From the NCBI GenBank assembly GCA_965205335.1, contig OZ242164.1, forward strand, positions 832,001-896,000: 64,000 nt of DNA, read 5' to 3'. Numbering within the stretch: the first letter of the stretch is position 1; each line of letters begins with the position of its first letter. Of the stretch, positions 16,503 through 59,747 are shown piece by piece. This DNA is from Candidatus Woesearchaeota archaeon. Lineage in GTDB: Archaea > Nanobdellota > Nanobdellia > Woesearchaeales > UBA583. The notes beneath the pieces are model-generated. The model ran no database searches, had not been told where the DNA came from, and worked only from the letters and a program-made list of their open reading frames with translations. The translations under genes and the position numbers were made by a program.

Positions 16503-17444
16503 TGTGTAGTGCAGTGACATATGTCACCACCTCAACTTTCTCTGAAAGTTGTCAAACTCATAAGAAGGAGTTTGACCAAATAAGCCCTCATGAGGCCTAA
16601 AAGCATTGTATCTATATCTAAATAACTCTAAATCATTGTTGCAATACTTAATTTCTCTGTCAATTGTTCCAAACAAACGTTCCACTTTTCCATTTGTTTG
16701 AGGACGGTTAACTCTAGTTCTAATGTGCTTAATCCCTCTTCTTTGACGCCATTTATCAAACTTAGACTTCTTACTTGTGAGTCCATATGGTGCTCCATTG
16801 TCACTGATTATTTGATTAGGATTTCCAAATTTCTTGATTAAATTATCAAGAAACTGTGTTACAATTGGCGTTGTAACAGTTGGAACGTGTAAAATACCTA
16901 AACAATAACGAATGGCATCATCAATGACTGCAATTATTTTACCTTTTTCCCCAAATTCACTGTCATCAATATGCCAAAGTGAATTTGAGTGTTTACGTTC
17001 GAAACGAACGTATTTAACCTGAGACCCTCTATTTCCTTCTTTACGAGTTAAATTATTCTCTCTAAGAACTTTATTAATGGTTCTCTCTGAAATATCCAGA
17101 TTAGGTAGGATTTTATGAAGCTTTTTAGATCCCCAACCAGTTTTATATCGAAGATTTAAAATTGCTTTCTCATCTTCTAAAGTAACTTTGTAATAGATCT
17201 TGTTTGGTCTTGTAGACTTATCTTGATAATCCCATATTTCTTTATCAAAACGTTGTTGCCAACGTTTTAAAGTACGAATACTTACAAAGTATTTGCACTT
17301 CTCAGCAAGTATTTTCTTGCATTTAGAATAAGAGTTTTGTTTAACTCTTAGTTTTATGAAAACTTTCCTAATTTCGTATTTTTTCATAAAATTAACAAGA
17401 ATTGTTAATTTTTAGACTGGTGACATATGTCACTGCACTACACA
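16503..17444 (-). mobile_element. IS481-family insertion sequence, intact (942 bp)
   Basis: 27-bp perfect TIR TGTGTAGTGCAGTGACATATGTCACCA; 14-bp TSD GATTATCTGTGAAT (16489-16502 and 17445-17458); TGT...ACA ends. Confidence 0.93.
16524..17387 (-). CDS. IS481-family DDE transposase (rve integrase core)
   Basis: LWHID, IISDNG, PQTNGKVER and YN..RPH motifs. Confidence 0.93.
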   Translation of the reverse strand: MKKYEIRKVFIKLRVKQNSYSKCKKILAEKCKYFVSIRTLKRWQQRFDKEIWDYQDKSTRPNKIYYKVTLEDEKAILNLRYKTGWGSKKLHKILPNLDISERTINKVLRENNLTRKEGNRGSQVKYVRFERKHSNSLWHIDDSEFGEKGKIIAVIDDAIRYCLGILHVPTVTTPIVTQFLDNLIKKFGNPNQIISDNGAPYGLTSKKSKFDKWRQRRGIKHIRTRVNRPQTNGKVERLFGTIDREIKYCNNDLELFRYRYNAFRPHEGLFGQTPSYEFDNFQRKLRW

Positions 17445-25662: not shown

Positions 25663-26814
25663 CTAATACAAGAATTCGTTCTTCTCAATTATAAATTCCT
25701 TAATTTCCACAGGTTTTGTTATTATCTTGATTTCATTTGTTCCAAACCTTAAATAAGATACAATTGATTTAATCTCATCACGTTTTAAACTCATAGTCTT
25801 TCCATTCAGCCTTATATCAATAACTTCCTTATCAAAATCCCCATACATTATCACATCAATTATATCATTAAACGAATTTATTGTAAACTTGTATACCTGC
25901 TGGTCATTAAAATAAACCTTATTAATTGAATACGCAACAGTATAGAAACCATTTGTTTCAAGTTCTAACACATTTGCATCTGGATTTAATATATTCTTAG
26001 GTACATTACCTGAAATTTTATTATACCTTGACAAGCAACGAGGATTTTCATTTGATATAGTATACCCATTAACAGTAATCTTAATTGCCTCAGAAACCTC
26101 TTTCTTTACATTACACTCAACTACTAAATCAATAAATACTCTCTCAAGAAACTTCTCATTATCGATCTGAAAATTGAAATCTCTTTTATTATTTTCCTGA
26201 TTATAAATAACCTCTGCAACTCTAAACTCTGAAATATCCATCTTATTCCAATTAATTATATTATACCATCTTGGCTTCTCTAATTCAAAAGATAAAGTTG
26301 TTTTCGTAAAATTTTCAGGATTTTGTATCCTTATTGGAACCCTGATGGGAATATCAGAATTTCTGGCAAGGGTTTTAATAAACTTCTTACCATCAACCTT
26401 AATTATCAAATGATTATCTCCCCAAACCCTGTCAGGATTAAAATACAGCAAAATATGCTTCACATCTTGAGGATTTAAAAAAGTTAAATCCATCTCATAA
26501 TTGTTAGCACCAATAAAATTAGCATTTAACCTAAATGAACTTCCTAAATAAATCACATTTGTAACTTCCTTTGAACCTAACTCTATATTTGGAAAACTCT
26601 CAGTTACTCTTCGTTGCCTTCCTATATCCGTATCATTTAAATAGAATAAATAAGAATCATAAGAATCAGAATCTCCCCCTTCTCCCTTTTTCTTTATGAA
26701 TGGGTTATCTGAATCATCTGAACCAAAAAAAATAGAGCCTACAACTAATAAAAGTGCCATAGCTATTATCCCTATAGCCACTTCATTTACACCTTTTTTA
26801 TTTCCTATATTCAT
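25663..26814 (-). CDS. Hypothetical exported protein with class III-like signal (KKG|VNE)
   Basis: Basic leader ending in KKG followed by a hydrophobic stretch; beta-rich body. Confidence 0.6.
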   Translation of the reverse strand: MNIGNKKGVNEVAIGIIAMALLLVVGSIFFGSDDSDNPFIKKKGEGGDSDSYDSYLFYLNDTDIGRQRRVTESFPNIELGSKEVTNVIYLGSSFRLNANFIGANNYEMDLTFLNPQDVKHILLYFNPDRVWGDNHLIIKVDGKKFIKTLARNSDIPIRVPIRIQNPENFTKTTLSFELEKPRWYNIINWNKMDISEFRVAEVIYNQENNKRDFNFQIDNEKFLERVFIDLVVECNVKKEVSEAIKITVNGYTISNENPRCLSRYNKISGNVPKNILNPDANVLELETNGFYTVAYSINKVYFNDQQVYKFTINSFNDIIDVIMYGDFDKEVIDIRLNGKTMSLKRDEIKSIVSYLRFGTNEIKIITKPVEIKEFIIEKNEFLY

Positions 26815-30630: not shown

Positions 30631-31848
30631 ATGAAAAAAACATCTCTTAAAGACTACTTAAGTGAAACACTTGGAGAAGACTTGGCAAAAAAAGTAAACA
30701 GAGCATTTGAAGTAGTTGGAGACATTGCAATAATTGAAATAAATCCTGAGTTAGACAAATACTCAAAACAAATTGGAGAAGCCCTTCTAAAAACAAACAA
30801 ATCCATAAAGACAGTTCTAAAAAAATCAGGAATCCATCATGGGGAATTCAGAACTCAAGATTTAATATATGTTGCAGGAGAAAACAAAAAAGAGACTCAA
30901 TACACCGAAAACGGAATAAGACTTAAAATCAATCCCGTGGCAGTATACTTCTCAGCAAGACTTTCAACAGAAAGAGCCAATCTAATGGATAAATTAAAAC
31001 CTAATAAAAGAATTCTTGTAATGTTTTCAGGAATTGGACCTTACACATTTGTTGCCATGAAAAAACAACCTGACATTAAAAACATCACATCAATTGAAGT
31101 AAATCCAGAAGGACACAAATATGCATTAGAAAACCTAAAACTAAACAAAAACCTCATAAAAAAATCAAAAGATTACAAACAAGTAACACAATTTCTAAAA
31201 GATAACAACATCCTCTTTCACGAAAAAGAATTAATAAGATTAATTAACAATCTAAAATACACATTCATTAACGAAGATGTAAGAAAAGTCATACCAGAAT
31301 TAAAACTAAAAAAATACACAAGGGAAATTTCAAACTACCACAACGAACTCTTCACGATGTCACCAAAAGACATATCTGATTTCTTAAAAGATGCCAAATT
31401 CAAGGAAATATTCATTGACTTAGACAACTTAGAAGATAGAACAAAACTAAAAAACTTATTCATAATATTTTCAGAAAAATTTAATTATATACTAAAAACA
31501 AATAATAAAAAGTACATATTTGATGATTATATAACTAAAACATACCTATTAGACGTTCTAAGAGGCGATAACATTGAAGATATAAACAAATTTGATGAAA
31601 TATATATGCCCCTCCCAAAAGACTCCTCATTATTTCTTAATGTGGCATTCAAAGTTGCAAAACCCCAAACAATAATTCACACATATGATTTTGTTTCATA
31701 TAAAGATTTCCCAGATAAAACACAGAAATCAATTAAAGATATTGCCCAAAAAAATAACGTTAAAATACAAATAATTCAGACAAGAAAATTAGGACAATAC
31801 TCTCCAAGAAAATACAGGGTATGCTGTGACTTTAAAATCATCTCATAA
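30631..31848 (+). CDS. trm5: tRNA (guanine37-N1) methyltransferase Trm5 family, with insertions
   Basis: FEVVGDIAII, ENG, VYFSARLSTER, MFSGIGP and MPLPK. Confidence 0.85.
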   Translation: MKKTSLKDYLSETLGEDLAKKVNRAFEVVGDIAIIEINPELDKYSKQIGEALLKTNKSIKTVLKKSGIHHGEFRTQDLIYVAGENKKETQYTENGIRLKINPVAVYFSARLSTERANLMDKLKPNKRILVMFSGIGPYTFVAMKKQPDIKNITSIEVNPEGHKYALENLKLNKNLIKKSKDYKQVTQFLKDNNILFHEKELIRLINNLKYTFINEDVRKVIPELKLKKYTREISNYHNELFTMSPKDISDFLKDAKFKEIFIDLDNLEDRTKLKNLFIIFSEKFNYILKTNNKKYIFDDYITKTYLLDVLRGDNIEDINKFDEIYMPLPKDSSLFLNVAFKVAKPQTIIHTYDFVSYKDFPDKTQKSIKDIAQKNNVKIQIIQTRKLGQYSPRKYRVCCDFKIIS

Positions 31849-31876
31849 TTATTCCTTAGTTCATTTCTCTACAATG

Positions 31877-31974
31877 GTATAACTTATATCGGTGCACCGT
31901 CAAGGCATGGCATCCGTAGCCGCGAACAGTCGAAAAATTCTCTAAATTGTCTAGTGATGCTGATATGATTATAA
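31877..31974. other. GC-rich imperfect inverted repeat (attC-like or element remnant)
   Basis: tataacttatatcggtgcac ... gtgatgctgatatgattata can pair; the minus strand ends in GTTATAC. Confidence 0.3.
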
Positions 31975-32001
31975 TATACATATCTGATTTTCTATGCAAG
32001 A

Positions 32002-32949
32002 TCAAGCAGTCAAAGGACAACTACTTGATTTTTTAAATTGCTCCAAATTTCCCCAATTTTTCTTTTTATAATTCCATGTGGTAAATTTCAGCCGTATATC
32101 AATGTGTATGAACTCGGCTTCCTTGTTCACTCCCATACCTTTAAAACCATATTTGCGAGCAGAACATATAAATGCTTTCATTTTTTCATAACTCCACCCC
32201 CTGGTACTGATATCAACCGCTGTTCCTCTTAAATGTTCGGAATTCCTGGCATCCGACACATCATCGTTATGTTTGGGGGATCTATAGGCACTGTTGATGA
32301 TAAGTGGTTTATTCAAACCAATGTCTTGGTGCACTGCTTTAAGTTTGGACCATACAATATCTCTGACTCCCTCATACCTCTTTCCGGGTCTTTCATCAGT
32401 GTAACAACCTCTATTGCAGTTGCAACTCACCACACATTCGCTTAATTTTATCATGCCTCCTCTCTCTATCTCATCCTTTATTTTCTCTTTATTTGTATTC
32501 GTCTTATCCTCATCCTTCCTATCCTCATCTGTCCTGTCCCCATCAGTCCTATCTTTATCCGCCCTATTCTCATTTAATAAATTCTTGAACTTCTCATGTA
32601 ATTTACCACCGCAACCTAAATTTTCTTTCTTTTCATTATCTATATCAGAACTATCACATTGCTTAAAATACTTTTCCCACATTTCCCATCTCTTAAAATC
32701 TTTCTCCTCACAACTCTTCTCTAAAAGCATATCCTTAGTACATCTTTCAATATTACACAACTTATCTGTTCTCTCGCACTTCTCAATTGCCAAAGCTTGG
32801 GAAGGAGTTAAAATAACATTAGGAGAATCCTGAAAGAACTTACCAACAACTAAAATTATAACTAAAATAACCACTCCTATAATGATTAGTTCTATAACCT
32901 TTTGAAGGGACAACTCAACAGCTTTTTTATTACCTATTGGGCTTCTCAT
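32002..32949 (-). CDS. Pilin-type class III signal peptide fused to peptidase M15A (Peptidase_M15_3) zinc peptidoglycan peptidase domain
   Basis: KKA|VELSLQKVIELIIIGVVIL; SAYRS, HLRGTAVD (Hx6D) and FIHIDIR. Confidence 0.85.
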   Translation of the reverse strand: MRSPIGNKKAVELSLQKVIELIIIGVVILVIILVVGKFFQDSPNVILTPSQALAIEKCERTDKLCNIERCTKDMLLEKSCEEKDFKRWEMWEKYFKQCDSSDIDNEKKENLGCGGKLHEKFKNLLNENRADKDRTDGDRTDEDRKDEDKTNTNKEKIKDEIERGGMIKLSECVVSCNCNRGCYTDERPGKRYEGVRDIVWSKLKAVHQDIGLNKPLIINSAYRSPKHNDDVSDARNSEHLRGTAVDISTRGWSYEKMKAFICSARKYGFKGMGVNKEAEFIHIDIRLKFTTWNYKKKNWGNLEQFKKSSSCPLTA

Positions 32950-32957
32950 CTTAAACT

Positions 32958-34439
32958 CTATCCCTTAATCACTTCAAAAGAATGGAAATATCTTCTAATC
33001 TTCCCGTGGATTTTAGCTTCAATTTCCAAATCAGGAATCTTAATATCTCCTAAAATACCTTTCTTATTCACAAGTGCAAACCCAATAATTCTTGAATCAT
33101 TCTTTTCAAACCTCTTAAAATTCCAGACTAATTTGAACTGATTTCTCCCCTTCATAACATGATTTGGTTCAGTTAATAAAAAAGAATTATCCCTAATCTG
33201 AAGATACCCAGGCATTCTAAAAATAATCTTCAACAAATCAATCTCGGATTCCTTTATATTTTCAAACCCAATTTTAACCTTCATACTTTTAACACCCTCA
33301 TGCTCAACTTTCTCAACTTCATAAATATCAGTTTCAACATCTAAAGGATTTGATGATTTTCTAATATACCAATAAGTTGCAACACATAAAACAATTAAAA
33401 CCAAAAGATAAAGTGTCAGATAATTAACTGAATAAGTTATAGATTTAGTCTCCCCTTTTTCCAGAGGAATGTTAAATTTTATTCCCTTGTCTGTTTTTTC
33501 ATAATTATCCGAACCTGATGATGAAAATAAGAATCTTTCAAAAAACCCAAGTTTTACATCCCTAACATAAGTATCAAAAACATTACCATTATTTGTTACA
33601 GTAATCATAACCTCATCTTCAAGAAAATTTGATTTAGGTTCAACAACTTCATTTATTTGCCTAATTTCTACAACATTTATTAAACTATTCGCAAACCATT
33701 CTTGAGCAGTGTTTGTATTATTCTCTGTGTGTCTAATAATAACTCTCGCCTCGTACTCCTTTGGATCAATCTTAGGAGATATTTCTGCCTGATAAACTTT
33801 ATAATTTAAAGATTTTGAAAAAGTATCATCAAAGTTCGCAATCTCATGTTCACCTAATTCTACTCTTACATTAACTGAAATTTCCTCTCCCATATTTTTT
33901 ACTTCAATAGTATAATCCAAAGGAGATGCAGGGGACACATCACTTACTGCAAATCTTGGATTAAAAATTATTGGAACAGAATTAGGTTTCTCGATTTTAA
34001 CACGGAACTTCACTAAAACTTCTTCATTTTTTCCTACTACCTTAATAGGAAGATCAAATTCCCCATTATACTCATTATCCTGAGAAATAATTATCTCCTC
34101 AGGGGAAATAACATCAGTACTGTAATCAAACTCTGAATTAGCACTATAACTAAAAGTAATCAGCTTTTTTTTGTTAATTCCTAAATTGAATGTTTTATAA
34201 TTTACTTCAGTATCCCATCCTTTCTGATCAAAAATTACAACTTCAAAGTTCTGAGAAGAATCCAAATTATTATTAACTTCAAGTGCGAATTCTCCATTAA
34301 TATCATCATTAAATACAATACTTTCCTGAGTTTCAATTACTACAGAAAAATCTCCATTTTCATTCAAAGTTATAGCAAAAGCACTACAAATGCCAAATAA
34401 AATCACAAAAAATGTAATAATAAAGGATTTAAAAATCAT
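32958..34439 (-). CDS. Hypothetical surface/S-layer-associated Ig-like protein with signal peptide and internal TM
   Basis: Signal MIFKSFII...SAFA; TM near aa 340; start set to 34439, behind a GA-rich SD. Confidence 0.7.
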   Translation of the reverse strand: MIFKSFIITFFVILFGICSAFAITLNENGDFSVVIETQESIVFNDDINGEFALEVNNNLDSSQNFEVVIFDQKGWDTEVNYKTFNLGINKKKLITFSYSANSEFDYSTDVISPEEIIISQDNEYNGEFDLPIKVVGKNEEVLVKFRVKIEKPNSVPIIFNPRFAVSDVSPASPLDYTIEVKNMGEEISVNVRVELGEHEIANFDDTFSKSLNYKVYQAEISPKIDPKEYEARVIIRHTENNTNTAQEWFANSLINVVEIRQINEVVEPKSNFLEDEVMITVTNNGNVFDTYVRDVKLGFFERFLFSSSGSDNYEKTDKGIKFNIPLEKGETKSITYSVNYLTLYLLVLIVLCVATYWYIRKSSNPLDVETDIYEVEKVEHEGVKSMKVKIGFENIKESEIDLLKIIFRMPGYLQIRDNSFLLTEPNHVMKGRNQFKLVWNFKRFEKNDSRIIGFALVNKKGILGDIKIPDLEIEAKIHGKIRRYFHSFEVIKG

Positions 34440-35382
34440 TTTCTCCCCCTTCCTCTTCTTTTGATTTAGCTTTAATTTTTTTAATCTCATCTTCTAAATT
34501 TAATTTAGAAATTATTTCTTTATATCTGTTTCGTATAGTAACCTCCGTAACTCCTGAAACATCTGAAATATCTCTTTGGGTTTTCCTCTCTCCTTCAAGT
34601 AAGCCTGCGATGTATAAAGCCGCTGCTGCAATTCCTATAGGACCACGGCCAGAAGTTAATTCAAGAGATAAAGCCTTTGATAGAATCTCAACAGCTCTTG
34701 ACTGGGTTCCAGCCCCATAATTTAGAACAGATGCAAATCTTGATATGTAATCTACCGGATTTGAAGGCAAAATCTTAATTCTAAGTTCTCTTGTAATATA
34801 ACGATAAGACCTTCCGATTTCTTTTTTATCAATTCCGGATGCTTCCGCGATCTCATCTAATGTTCTGGGGATATTTTGTCTTCTGCATGCTGCATATACC
34901 ACACCTGCTACAACAGATTCAATACTTCTCCCCCTAACTAAGTTTTTCTGAACAGCTTCAGTATACACCTTTCCTGCTTCCTCTTCAATTGAGGATGGTA
35001 GATTCAGAAAAGATGATAACCTCCTAAGTTCTCCTAATGCAATTTTAAGATTCTTTTCCATAACTGTTGAAAGTCTCTTCTGCCACCTCTTTAATCTCTG
35101 AAGCTTATATCTTTGTTTCTTATCCAGAGAAAAAGCATCTGATTCAGAACCAATTGCAGTTCCCATACCCAAATCAAACTTAGTATATGATGTAGGTGCA
35201 CCAGACCTTCTCATCTCGGAATCATCACTTTCTTCAAAATCCCTCCATTCCTTTCCAAGCGAAATATTCTTTCCATCAATTAGAAGCCCACAACTTCTGC
35301 ATATTATTTCTCCCTTATCCTTGTTGTTGTAAAGATTAGAACTTGCACACTCAGGACATTTTTTAATATTATCTCCACTCAT
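34429..35382 (-). CDS. tfb: Transcription initiation factor IIB
   Basis: CPEC/CRSC zinc ribbon, EWR.F, RGRSIES, PRTLDEIA and GVTEVTIRNRYKE. Confidence 0.97.
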   Translation of the reverse strand: MSGDNIKKCPECASSNLYNNKDKGEIICRSCGLLIDGKNISLGKEWRDFEESDDSEMRRSGAPTSYTKFDLGMGTAIGSESDAFSLDKKQRYKLQRLKRWQKRLSTVMEKNLKIALGELRRLSSFLNLPSSIEEEAGKVYTEAVQKNLVRGRSIESVVAGVVYAACRRQNIPRTLDEIAEASGIDKKEIGRSYRYITRELRIKILPSNPVDYISRFASVLNYGAGTQSRAVEILSKALSLELTSGRGPIGIAAAALYIAGLLEGERKTQRDISDVSGVTEVTIRNRYKEIISKLNLEDEIKKIKAKSKEEEGGENDF

Positions 35383-35748
35383 TTGTTATAAACTGTAATC
35401 TTTTAAAAAATATTCAAAATTCAATTCTATTACCACAAAGTTTTTAAAGTTTACTAAAAACAAATGGTTTTCAATTTATAATACTCTGTAATTACTATTA
35501 GTGCTAATTATATGAATTAAAGACTATTACTCAAAATATTTATGCATGAATTCTGACCACCATAATCAAATAAAAAATGAAAAGAAACATAAGAATATAT
35601 AGTCAGAGTTTCTATCTAATGATGTACTAAATTCTTTCTTTAAAGCCATATTTCAATGGAGAAATAAAATTACAAGTAAATCAATTTAGAAAAGTCCTCA
35701 TCCCAATAATTTTTTAAACTATTATTTCTTTCCTTTTATGAAGTTGTA

Positions 35749-36288
35749 ATGAGTGATGTGCCAGACATAGACAGATTTTTCTTAGAAAAAGACAGAATTG
35801 CAGTTTTTATAGGGCGTAATGGTTCTTGGAAAAAAAAATTTGAAGAGACTTTTAACTGCAAAATAAACATTAATTCAGATAATGGCGAAGTAATAGTTGA
35901 AAGCAACAACCCAACATCTCGGTTTGTATTATCTAATATTATTCACGCAATAAACTATGGACATAACCCTCAGAGTGCAATAAAACTTGAAGACGAAAAC
36001 TATGTCTTAGACGTAATTGACATAAAAACTATGGTTCGCGATCACAACAGATTAAACACAATTATAGGAAGAATCATTGGAAAAAATGGTTCAACAAGAA
36101 AGTTAATTGAAGACATAACAAAATGCAACGTTAGTGTCTATAATAACTATGTAAGTATTATTGGACCTTATGAGAACACTACACTTGTACATGAAGCATT
36201 GGAAATGTTAATCAATGGAGCATCACACAAATCCTTTTATTTGTTCTTAGAAAGAAACAGGGTGAAAATGGACACAGGACTGCTATGA
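35749..36288 (+). CDS. KH-domain rRNA-processing protein (Pno1/Dim2-like)
   Basis: Two KH GxxG motifs: IGRNG and GRIIGKNG. Confidence 0.9.
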   Translation: MSDVPDIDRFFLEKDRIAVFIGRNGSWKKKFEETFNCKININSDNGEVIVESNNPTSRFVLSNIIHAINYGHNPQSAIKLEDENYVLDVIDIKTMVRDHNRLNTIIGRIIGKNGSTRKLIEDITKCNVSVYNNYVSIIGPYENTTLVHEALEMLINGASHKSFYLFLERNRVKMDTGLL

Positions 36289-58484: not shown

Positions 58485-59747
58485 ATGGATAATAAAAACC
58501 TTTACAGTAAAATAAAAAAATATGGAGCTTCGGCAGGACTGCTGTTTGGGCTCTTTTTAGGAGGTTGTGATTACAATTTTCATGATAAAAATAACTCTTC
58601 AGATGCTCAAACTAATAAAGTTACAAAAACCCTTCCTTTAGAGTATTCCAAAAGACATCCATCAATACAAGCCTTAATTAAAGATAGAGGTGTTGAATAC
58701 TACCCTCCTAGTTCTTTTCAAACATGGACTCATTCATTAGTTGATATTTGTACAGGCACAGGTATTTGCTCAAAAGACGAATATAAGAGGCAAAGGTACA
58801 GACGAGTTTTTATAAGACTTGATGGAAAACTTGCAGGAACTGTAAATAGTAATACATTACCAGCAAGTATTAGAGGAGGTCAGCCCAGACGATTTAATGA
58901 AACAGAATGGAAACAAGTTGACGTGAGAATTAAAAGTGGACATGATTATGTTATTCCTTTTAATCAAGGTGATAAAGGATATCCATTTGGATTTAAATGT
59001 AATGGAAACATATTAAGAATCGGAATTGAGAGATACCTAAGGGGAGATATTAGAGGAGAGTATGGAGAATATGGGGAATATAATGTAGATTTTTACGAAG
59101 CATCATGGGGTGTTTATGTTGAAAATGGATTTCGGAAAAGAGGGATATTGCCAGAAGAGATATTTTATATAGTTAATGGTATGGCAAATGTTGAGAGTAA
59201 TTTCCTAAGAAGTGCAGAAAATAGTTCAACGGGTGCAAGGGGAATACTTCAACAGATGCCCAAAACTCTTCAAGATTGTGGAGTTCCTCAAAGTATGCAT
59301 AAAGATAGACTTGCTCAACTTGATTGTGCTTATAGATATTTTGAAGATAGATTTTCTCATTATGAACCACTAATAAATAATATAAAGATTAGTTCAGAAC
59401 AAAGAAATGAATTCTTGCTTTATCTGGCTGTTCAGGCTTATCATACAGGACAAGGTAATATAGAAAAAATATTAAAAGACCCAGAATCAATTAAAATTGC
59501 AAATAGATTTGTAGAAGAAGGAAGAGACCCTATTGAAATAGTACATGGGTTAACGATATTAAATTATGGACTTGGAAATAATGGGACTAAGGTAGGATTA
59601 GTATCTAGTTCTTATCTTCCCAAAGTAATAGCATCAGTTAGAATCTTAGAAGAAGTTAGACGAAAAAGAAGAAAAGAAGGGAATAGGATTAAAGGATATT
59701 CACTCCCTCCTCTACTCTTTCCTGAAGAAGAGGAAGGTAATAAATAA
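58485..59747 (+). CDS. Lytic transglycosylase (SLT/GH23-like), putative lipoprotein; paralog of 56160
   Basis: LFLGGC lipobox-like; ANVESNF, TGARGILQQMP, AYHTGQGNI and SYLPKV. Confidence 0.87.
   Translation: MDNKNLYSKIKKYGASAGLLFGLFLGGCDYNFHDKNNSSDAQTNKVTKTLPLEYSKRHPSIQALIKDRGVEYYPPSSFQTWTHSLVDICTGTGICSKDEYKRQRYRRVFIRLDGKLAGTVNSNTLPASIRGGQPRRFNETEWKQVDVRIKSGHDYVIPFNQGDKGYPFGFKCNGNILRIGIERYLRGDIRGEYGEYGEYNVDFYEASWGVYVENGFRKRGILPEEIFYIVNGMANVESNFLRSAENSSTGARGILQQMPKTLQDCGVPQSMHKDRLAQLDCAYRYFEDRFSHYEPLINNIKISSEQRNEFLLYLAVQAYHTGQGNIEKILKDPESIKIANRFVEEGRDPIEIVHGLTILNYGLGNNGTKVGLVSSSYLPKVIASVRILEEVRRKRRKEGNRIKGYSLPPLLFPEEEEGNK

Follow-up and report, generated by a model that had tools for sequence, protein, structure and literature searches.

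A predicted surface-tethered M15/LAS zinc peptidase, probably directed against murein, at a locus of rapid domain exchange in a Woesearchaeota archaeon

The window considered here, the whole stretch of 64,000 nucleotides (nt) that was analysed, comes from a Candidatus Woesearchaeota archaeon (GenBank assembly GCA_965205335.1, contig OZ242164.1, positions 832,001 to 896,000 of the forward strand). Its subject, hereafter the focal gene, lies between the genes for transcription factor B (TFB) and an envelope protein (p510) on one side and a convergent methyltransferase gene (Trm5) on the other (Table 1), and probably encodes a cell-surface enzyme that attacks the walls of bacteria. The protein is laid out as a class III-type leader, a hydrophobic helix, a stalk with six Cys, a repeat linker and an M15/LAS zinc peptidase. 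Its open reading frame (ORF) starts 8 nt past the stop codon of p510, the last codons of which supply a purine run (GGGA) in front of the focal ATG. The Cys residues of the stalk are found at positions 58, 65, 70, 80, 98 and 113, and four more lie at 172-182; the stalk, about 95 amino acids (aa) long, matched no Pfam family over aa 39-135 and is an undescribed domain. The D/R string of the linker, DKDRTDGDRTDEDRKDEDK, makes up aa 131-149 and is coded by a 15-nt tandem repeat of 4.9 copies at 32500-32573. An AlphaFold2 model computed from a 66-sequence alignment (mean predicted local distance difference test (pLDDT) score, 75.9) runs from a helix (9-38) through a low-confidence break (41-44) into an all-helical stalk (49-132); order is then poor up to about residue 189, and a confidently modelled alpha/beta domain follows at 190-295. 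The initial annotation of this DNA had described a pilin-like leader, a Cys-rich and D/R-repeat linker and an M15 zinc site, and all of these are present in the ORF, as judged from its motifs and from PF08291.

Table 1. Features of the locus, with positions counted from the first nucleotide of the window
Feature	Position	Strand	Basis
Focal gene, 315 aa, ATG start	32002..32949	minus	ORF call, Pfam, AlphaFold model
Basic leader MRSPIGNKKA, aa 1-10; predicted prepilin-peptidase cut after Ala10	32920..32949	minus	Motif; predicted cleavage
Hydrophobic N-terminal helix, aa 11-38, Glu at +2	32836..32919	minus	Model helix 9-38, pLDDT up to 94
Six-Cys helical stalk domain, aa 39-135	32545..32835	minus	Model helices 49-132, pLDDT 70-88
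Charged flexible linker, aa 133-189, with 5-aa D/R repeats and CxxxCxCxxxC (Cys172-182)	32383..32553	minus	pLDDT 51-58
M15/LAS zinc peptidase domain, aa 190-295	32065..32382	minus	PF08291, fold, pLDDT 86-96
Zinc ligands H239, D246, H282	32233-32235, 32212-32214, 32104-32106	minus	Sequence motifs
p510, upstream envelope-protein gene; likely start gives 493 aa, from 34439	32958..34490	minus	Synteny
TFB gene, upstream of p510	34429..35382	minus	PF00382, PF08271
Trm5/Tyw2 methyltransferase gene, convergent with the focal gene	30631..31848	plus	Pfam, synteny
61-aa mini-pilin-like ORF, N-terminus ...NNKKA-IELTFQ, then hydrophobic helix	29912..30097	plus	ORF call
SLT ORF, 771 aa	56160-58475	plus	C-terminal SLT 39.9 bits, over cut-off
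SLT ORF, 420 aa; lipobox-like ...GLFLGGC start	58485-59747	plus	C-terminal SLT 33.6 bits, over cut-off

The C-terminal domain matched Peptidase_M15_3 (PF08291) at aa 199-284 with 60.7 bits (cut-off, 23.2; E 1.7e-16) and Peptidase_M15_2 (PF05951) with 31.8 bits (cut-off, 27). The motifs SAYR (220-223), H239-x6-D246 and H282-I-D284 are in place, and where conservation in the 66-sequence alignment reaches 90% or more, in 12 columns, the protein agrees throughout (S220, R223, N228, S237, H239, A244, D246, G271, G273, H282, D284 and W292). The sole solved structure matched by sequence was 1lbu, a Streptomyces zinc DD-peptidase (E 6.7e-4), with the H-x6-D motifs aligned. It also headed the Foldseek search of the PDB with the model (E 7.7e-5), followed by the L-Ala-D-Glu endopeptidase ChiX, hedgehog N-domains, phage endolysins (LysECD7, T5, Ply500 and LysB4) and VanXYc. 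The modelled domain has the LAS fold, and with PF08291 over its cut-off and H239, D246 and H282 in position, the zinc site is as complete as first annotated.

The likely substrate emerges from the same locus in relatives. Those found via the TFB gene bear the names Woesearchaeota, Nanoarchaeia or Nanoarchaeota, except for some bins with clearly wrong labels, and their 80 TFB loci contain no M15 homologue at E 1e-5. Fourteen of the 80 have p510 downstream of TFB, and 13 of these also have a convergent Trm5 shortly beyond. The order TFB, DUF11-like envelope protein (p510), X and Trm5, in which X is the focal gene, recurs there: p510-X-Trm5 is kept in all 13 loci with both flanks, and the gap is filled in each by a single gene, the product of which has a hydrophobic helix at the N-terminus and a Cys-rich region and varies at the C-terminus. 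A p510 profile added five genomes and four metagenome contigs; two duplicates and one truncated contig were dropped, and the slot set comprised 22 relatives and the focal genome. The C-terminal domain, referred to here as the warhead, is a muramidase in eight of the 22 (PF11860, all over the cut-off) and a lytic transglycosylase (LT) in five, of which one is over the SLT cut-off and which together form a five-sequence profile that matches PDB entry 9udh, a "lytic transglycosidase" (E 2.9e-52). Two loci combine SLT/LT with M23: both domains are over their cut-offs in L104, and in L020 this is true of M23, with the LT part resting on a tblastn match to the genome's own SLT protein. Amidase_2 was found by Pfam in two loci, and one slot protein (L019, 173 aa) has no recognisable domain. 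The remaining four are VgrG3C-like, three of them with PF21277 below its cut-off (E 7e-5 to 3.5e-3); a model of this class (mean pLDDT 58.8; domain blocks, 62-94) was best matched by the C-terminal hydrolase of Vibrio cholerae VgrG3 (4noo), then by chitosanases, with a Z score of 12.9 and a root-mean-square deviation of 3.0 over 187 residues for 4noo, although a Z score below about 13 is not decisive for a helical domain. A profile of this class found nothing below E 0.5 among PDB sequences. Because the same slot in the 22 relatives holds muramidase, LT, N-acetylmuramoyl (MurNAc)-L-Ala amidase, M23 and VgrG3C-like domains on an anchor of the same kind, murein is strongly backed as the substrate of the focal peptidase. 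PF11860 matched only two of the 401 genomes of a phylum-wide sample, and the slot is thus a feature of the focal clade and not of the phylum. Two slot proteins (L025:8457-10187 and L027:8492-10234) carry an extra C-terminal module after the muramidase or transglycosylase, with an H-x6-D-like motif, a later H-x-D and no Pfam match; by these motifs it looks like another LAS peptidase. The p510 homologue at L111:2-1441 contains one in-frame stop (a pseudogene or an assembly error), and its record is titled Bdellovibrionales with genes that are Woesearchaeota-like, so that the bin label looks wrong.

A comparison of the focal protein with 1.84 billion representative proteins returned 2641 matches at E 1e-3 or better, and nearly all of the best 150 cover only the peptidase domain (aa ~165-305). 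Among these 150, P0005 (312 aa) has the whole architecture in common with it (54% identity), P0003 only aa 1-138 (74%) and P0036 aa 19-150 (30%). A word-index search agrees, with P0002 at 51% identity over the full length. The C-terminal part of P0003 is a different, weakly hedgehog-like domain (PF01085, E 0.0027), and that of P0036 is Amidase_2. A hidden Markov model (HMM) of the stalk, iterated to convergence from the sequences of the focal protein, P0002, P0005 and P0003, detects the domain in five of the 22 slot proteins (L106, L024, L023, L117 and L116) and in P0036; the remaining 3758 ORFs of the focal genome gave no match. The stalk has the consensus C-E-x(n)-C-x4-C-x(n)-C-x-E-x5-W-x5-Y-x-K-x-C-x(n)-C. 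Thus, five kinds of C-terminal domain (M15, hedgehog-like LAS, amidase, muramidase and VgrG3C-like) are joined to stalks that are homologous to one another.

Three comparisons bear on exchange of the warhead. Over 125 aligned N-terminal residues, identity between the focal protein and P0003 is 80%; past the break, which falls at the low-complexity linker, the two are unrelated. In two species-level genomes, L015 (LT) and L110 (muramidase), the DNA is 95% identical over 1121 nt that include p510 and the first seven slot codons (the leader), the slot bodies are unalignable over 702 and 813 nt, and 92% identity resumes from the 3' end of Trm5, which marks the recombination breakpoint. This is a clean cassette replacement. 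The warhead labels are unclustered on a quickly searched p510 tree of 23 rows, where the seven labels need 13 changes as compared with a minimum of 6 and a mean of 13.6 in shuffled labels (86 of 200 shuffles were as low).

The combination of parts found in the focal protein is rare. PF08291 matched 13 of the 401 genomes, with a class III-type N-terminus in the focal one only. Six of the other 12 (L004, L005, L008, L010, L011 and L013) encode a Sec-like signal, repeats that look by eye like LysM and a C-terminal M15 domain, which is a second, different export route for M15 peptidases in the phylum. The nearest annotated relatives of the focal catalytic domain are phage genes for "peptidase M15" or endolysin; 486 phage records match it, with 33-39% identity in the 15 listed and less than 60% in all. 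The donor of the domain could not be placed, as the clusters of 10 relatives are unnamed singletons or pairs.

The archaeon itself appears to lack murein. Its genome, a single contig of 1,199,749 bases with 30.9% guanine plus cytosine (GC), is 95% complete and gave 0 matches to Mur_ligase_M and to the transpeptidase of penicillin-binding proteins, both of which most bacterial control genomes match. Hence, the genome makes no murein, in agreement with the remark of the initial annotation on DPANN archaea, and in all likelihood no pseudomurein either. Three of its ORFs have an SLT domain, and these together with the M15 gene amount to a glycan-plus-peptide murein-cutting complement. Two of them lie in the window (Table 1) as tandem paralogues between the genes for HisRS and aIF2-gamma. 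The third, outside the window, encodes 811 aa (C1:957334-959769, plus strand); the N-terminus is Lys-rich, several segments are hydrophobic, and the SLT domain (58.4 bits) is at the C-terminus. It is similar to the large Woesearchaeota transglycosylase proteins of the literature. Also outside the window, two giant ORFs (C1:303514-310833, 2439 aa, and C1:355289-370825, 5178 aa) begin with 70 identical residues, signal-like at the N-terminus, and probably stem from the duplication of a giant surface protein.

Taken together, we consider it probable that the focal protein is a surface-tethered LAS/M15 zinc peptidase directed against murein, encoded in a fast-swapping locus by an archaeon that has no murein of its own. 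The N-terminal hydrophobic helix would take the protein into the membrane, and one of two A24-family prepilin peptidases would probably remove the basic leader of 10 residues. The mature end, V-E-L-S-L-Q-K on a 28-residue helix, could then either hold the protein in the membrane or enter it into a type IV filament. In the model, the six-Cys helical stalk and a charged repeat linker of about 55 residues would hold the catalytic domain off the cell, where the zinc site H239/D246/H282 is expected to cut peptide bonds of bacterial murein, in stem peptides or cross-links. In relatives, the slot keeps the anchor and the Cys-rich architecture while its hydrolase domain is swapped through recombination, both within the conserved flanks and at the linker, and a contest with bacterial hosts or prey would lead to turnover of this kind. 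The initial annotation had read the gene as a pilus-displayed enzyme that cuts bacterial walls at contact. What stands is that a DPANN archaeon encodes a complete M15/LAS zinc peptidase equipped with a signal for export or anchoring, with murein as a substrate now backed by the hydrolases of the slot; display on a pilus is doubtful, as discussed below, and action at contact with bacteria is conjecture.

Several observations weigh against this reading. Zinc-dependent hydrolysis of murein by H239, D246 and H282 is predicted from the presence of the site, and the bond that would be cut cannot be read from sequence within the M15/LAS group. The MepK equivalog model, the best NCBIfam match (NF053624), gave 41 bits against a cut-off of 185, and Pfam recognises no murein-binding domain in the protein, only M15 families. 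At the level of the slot, the stalk HMM misses 17 of the 22 proteins, the Cys-rich regions of which are alike in layout only; the VgrG3C-like assignment depends on a weak model and the Z score of 12.9; and the p510 tree comes from a quick search and not a careful one. With respect to the anchor, the seven of 22 slot orthologues that lack a leader could have plain signal anchors, and no curated pilin, class III or archaeal-flagellin N-terminal model matched the focal N-terminus or the 61-aa ORF. No RNA runs are listed among the sequencing runs that cover the locus, and no bacterial partner of the focal archaeon is known.

Whether the protein is anchored singly or built into a filament turns on its N-terminus, where a class III-type signal is plausible and processing by a prepilin peptidase likely, judging from the motif. 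A short basic leader that ends in Ala is followed directly by the helix at 9-38, and the leader and mature start (MRSPIGNKKA-VELSLQK) are identical to those of the 61-aa ORF, 2 kb away, in seven of ten residues over NKKA-x-EL-x-x-Q. The archaellin of the genome (PF01917, E 4e-24) has a leader of the same NKK[GA] style (...NKKG|AQGIGTL), and about 20 ORFs of 57 to 1123 aa, picked by eye among 34 regex matches, combine a [KR][KR][GA] leader with a hydrophobic stretch. By eye, 15 of the 22 slot orthologues have a basic leader of the form [KR]-x-[GA], ending in Gly or Ala before a hydrophobic stretch (for example, KKG|VELSLRK, KKG|VELSISK, KKA|LEITSGK and KKG|MELPSTK). Five of the seven leader-free ones start with M-ELSLTK, M-EITARK, M-EFSLRK, M-ELAPRK or MG-LELRK; the initiator Met stands exactly at the predicted +1 position in the first four, and in the fifth the predicted cut follows Gly. 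Both this pattern and the retention of Glu at +2 are in keeping with a prepilin-peptidase site that follows Gly or Ala. The corresponding machinery is encoded as well, with two Peptidase_A24 matches over the cut-off (C1:624767 and C1:1022146 regions) and two T2SSE ATPase matches over the cut-off.

From these features, it is possible, although we regard it as unlikely, that the focal gene encodes a genuine modular minor pilin, incorporated in a type IV filament of mini-pilins such as the 61-aa ORF or mounted on its tip, which cuts the bacterial wall at pilus contact. The close match to the 61-aa ORF argues for it, as do the Glu at +2, kept in most orthologues and in the x-E-L pilin-like ORFs of the genome and reminiscent of the N-terminal Glu of bacterial pilins, the A24 peptidases and T2SSE ATPases, and the documented grafting of modules onto modular pilins in bacteria (PMC8179133). 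However, the model has no globular pilin head: the helix ends at 38, the low-confidence break follows, and no beta-sheet precedes the peptidase domain. A check of curated pilin and class III models against the focal protein and its first 60 aa gave 0 Pfam families at E up to 1 and only chance-level NCBIfam matches, and prepilin processing is for that reason predicted at the level of a motif. Similar leaders also occur on large ORFs of the genome (744-1123 aa), one of the two A24/T2SSE sets may belong to the archaellum, and archaeal class III signals are found on surface proteins outside filaments as well, e.g. those of the Sulfolobus bindosome (PMC3047682). A 383-aa ORF in the window (25663-26814, minus strand), which begins MNIGNKKG|VNEVAIG... 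and matches no Pfam family, is a further large candidate substrate of a prepilin peptidase. The boldest form of this view, which we put forward only tentatively, is that a clade of Woesearchaeota maintains a warhead slot in which a carrier of pilin type, made up of a class III leader, a helix that has Glu at +2, a disulfide stalk and a flexible linker and delivered on or beside a type IV filament, has its murein-cutting domain replaced repeatedly by cassette recombination, the set comprising M15, hedgehog-like LAS, amidase, muramidase, LT, M23 and VgrG3C-like domains.

The use to which a surface-tethered peptidase would be put is a separate matter. With the SLT proteins of the genome, the focal protein could act as a scavenging ectoenzyme that digests free murein debris for sugars and amino acids and leaves living cells alone, an alternative for archaeal peptidoglycan hydrolases raised by Strock et al. 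(PMC12352652). The several murein-cutting genes are consistent with such a role, and anchoring would keep the products near a cell with a small genome; by analogy, however, a locus at which the catalytic domain is exchanged rapidly and repeatedly fits antagonistic or host-specific interfaces better than bulk nutrient enzymes, and scavenging seems to us a minority explanation. Less probable still is a substrate other than murein, whether surface proteins of the archaeon itself that the enzyme would process or free D-Ala-D-Ala. The LAS fold also includes enzymes with dipeptide substrates (VanX) and proteins with a role other than catalysis (hedgehog), hedgehog and VanXYc are both among the fold matches, and no murein-binding domain was found by Pfam. 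On the contrary, murein is the one substrate common to the muramidase, LT and MurNAc-L-Ala amidase that share the slot and stalk, and the sequences nearest to the catalytic domain are the phage genes described above. Finally, a mis-binned or chimeric bacterial or phage gene, or the lysin of a provirus, is suggested by the GC content of the focal gene (36.3%, in the top 8% of windows of a genome with a mean of 30.9%) and by the mostly bacterial or phage-like relatives of its catalytic domain, yet is very improbable given the single 1.2-Mb contig, run-level contigs that bridge both gene junctions, the housekeeping neighbours, a TFB gene next door with 36.4% GC, an archaeal-style N-terminus and stalk common to syntenic archaeal orthologues, and the lack of a close relative in viral contigs (a weak test that used one peptide pattern).

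The run-level contigs span Trm5-M15 (31759-32830) and M15-p510-TFB (32057-36000 and beyond) with 0 differences, joints or loose ends, which bears out the initial judgement that a chimeric contig was unlikely. They derive from three DNA runs of one sample, probably the source sample, and speak for consistency and not as independent support. The neighbourhood consists of genes for thermosome, GyrA, a KH protein, TFB, Trm5, NifU, UPP synthase and an MFS transporter. The p510 protein has a signal-like N-terminus, a transmembrane helix near aa 350 and, at its C-terminus, a domain of about 140 aa that is very conserved; no Pfam family matched it, and it is similar to DPANN-wide clusters of which 11-31% of members carry DUF11 (Atlas). 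Searched singly in genome contigs, neither the focal protein nor p510 returned a locus. No flanking repeats, a sign of mobile elements, were found around the focal gene, and the only mobile-element gene seen within 15 kb is an rve-family integrase/transposase ORF of 287 aa (16524-17387, minus strand). The spacer of 153 nt between Trm5 and the focal gene (31849-32001) contains a GC-rich island, in a genome that is AT-rich, with a perfect 10-nt palindrome, CGGTGCACCG. Rfam gave 0 matches over the window, a terminator scan found 0 sites, this spacer included, and promoter-like sites were no commoner than in shuffles.

To our knowledge, no host is known for Woesearchaeota. Murein hydrolases have been described in such genomes before; a single conserved locus with a catalytic domain that turns over about as fast as shuffled labels on the tree is a sharper sign of an ongoing interaction with bacterial walls. 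Screens that rely on Sec/Tat signals and known binding domains will undercount archaeal wall-degrading enzymes. Moreover, natural warheads on one carrier and a defined anchor offer experimental handles.

The best solved relative by sequence and fold is the zinc D-Ala-D-Ala carboxypeptidase of Streptomyces albus G (1lbu), which we take to belong to MEROPS subfamily M15A. It shares the LAS fold and the zinc site of H-x6-D and a later His, but is only 18% identical in the structural alignment and is a secreted bacterial protein with its own N-terminal domain, devoid of the class III-type anchor, Cys stalk and repeat linker. MepK/YcbK-type L,D-endopeptidases (PF05951, NF053624) and phage "peptidase M15" endolysins are of the same domain superfamily; the focal protein is not a MepK equivalog and has a predicted archaeal surface anchor, whereas the phage enzymes are small soluble lysins released from inside the host cell. 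A parallel in archaea is provided by Woldo and Danwoldo of Halogranum, murein hydrolases aimed at bacteria and encoded by archaea without murein (Strock et al. 2025, PMC12352652). That study reported that archaeal peptidoglycan hydrolases kill bacteria and that their genes are prominent and diverse in Nanoarchaeota; its survey required a known binding domain in addition to a catalytic one, and 32% (67/210) of its proteins had Sec/Tat signals. "Pilin", "class III" and "M15" do not occur in its main text. By Pfam, the focal protein has no LysM, PG_binding_1, SH3 or like domain and falls outside the definition of that survey; because its type combines the lack of a recognised binding domain with a class III-style anchor, the screen, as its main text describes it, would probably miss such proteins. 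In the same lineage, large murein-like lytic transglycosylase proteins of Woesearchaeota and Pacearchaeota have been discussed together with possible bacterial hosts (Castelle et al. 2021, PMC8204110; Vigneron et al. 2022, PMC9723730), with the same proposed attack on, or attachment to, bacterial walls. Those are very large glycan cutters of the GH23 type, as these articles present them, whereas the focal protein is small, is predicted to cut peptide bonds and has a conserved anchor, and its slot swaps cassettes. Modular type IV pilins such as PilB and PilC of Streptococcus sanguinis likewise carry a grafted functional module on a class III-type N-terminus through a linker (Raynaud et al. 2021, PMC8179133), but keep a pilin head where the focal protein has a helical Cys stalk; the text of that article deals with bacteria only, contains no occurrence of "archaea", and names adhesins or lectins and one peptidase (IPR030392) as modules.

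Murein hydrolases of DPANN archaea are thus already in print. For the class III-type anchor, the stalk and the cassette slot, full-text literature searches gave no precedent: neither a class III-anchored murein hydrolase in archaea nor a hydrolase cassette slot came up, although supplementary tables may list such proteins. An analogy for the slot as a whole lies elsewhere. Evolved VgrG spikes and polymorphic toxin loci join a conserved carrier to interchangeable C-terminal wall-degrading domains, and one warhead class of the slot resembles the C-terminal hydrolase of VgrG3. The focal system differs in that it resides in an archaeon without genes for a type VI secretion system, needs no immunity gene and has a membrane or pilin-type helix as its carrier. 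Should the warhead slot prove true, it would be an archaeal counterpart of evolved VgrG spikes or of phage lysin swapping, and would be direct evidence, from genomes, that bacteria and not archaea are what these DPANN archaea live or prey on.

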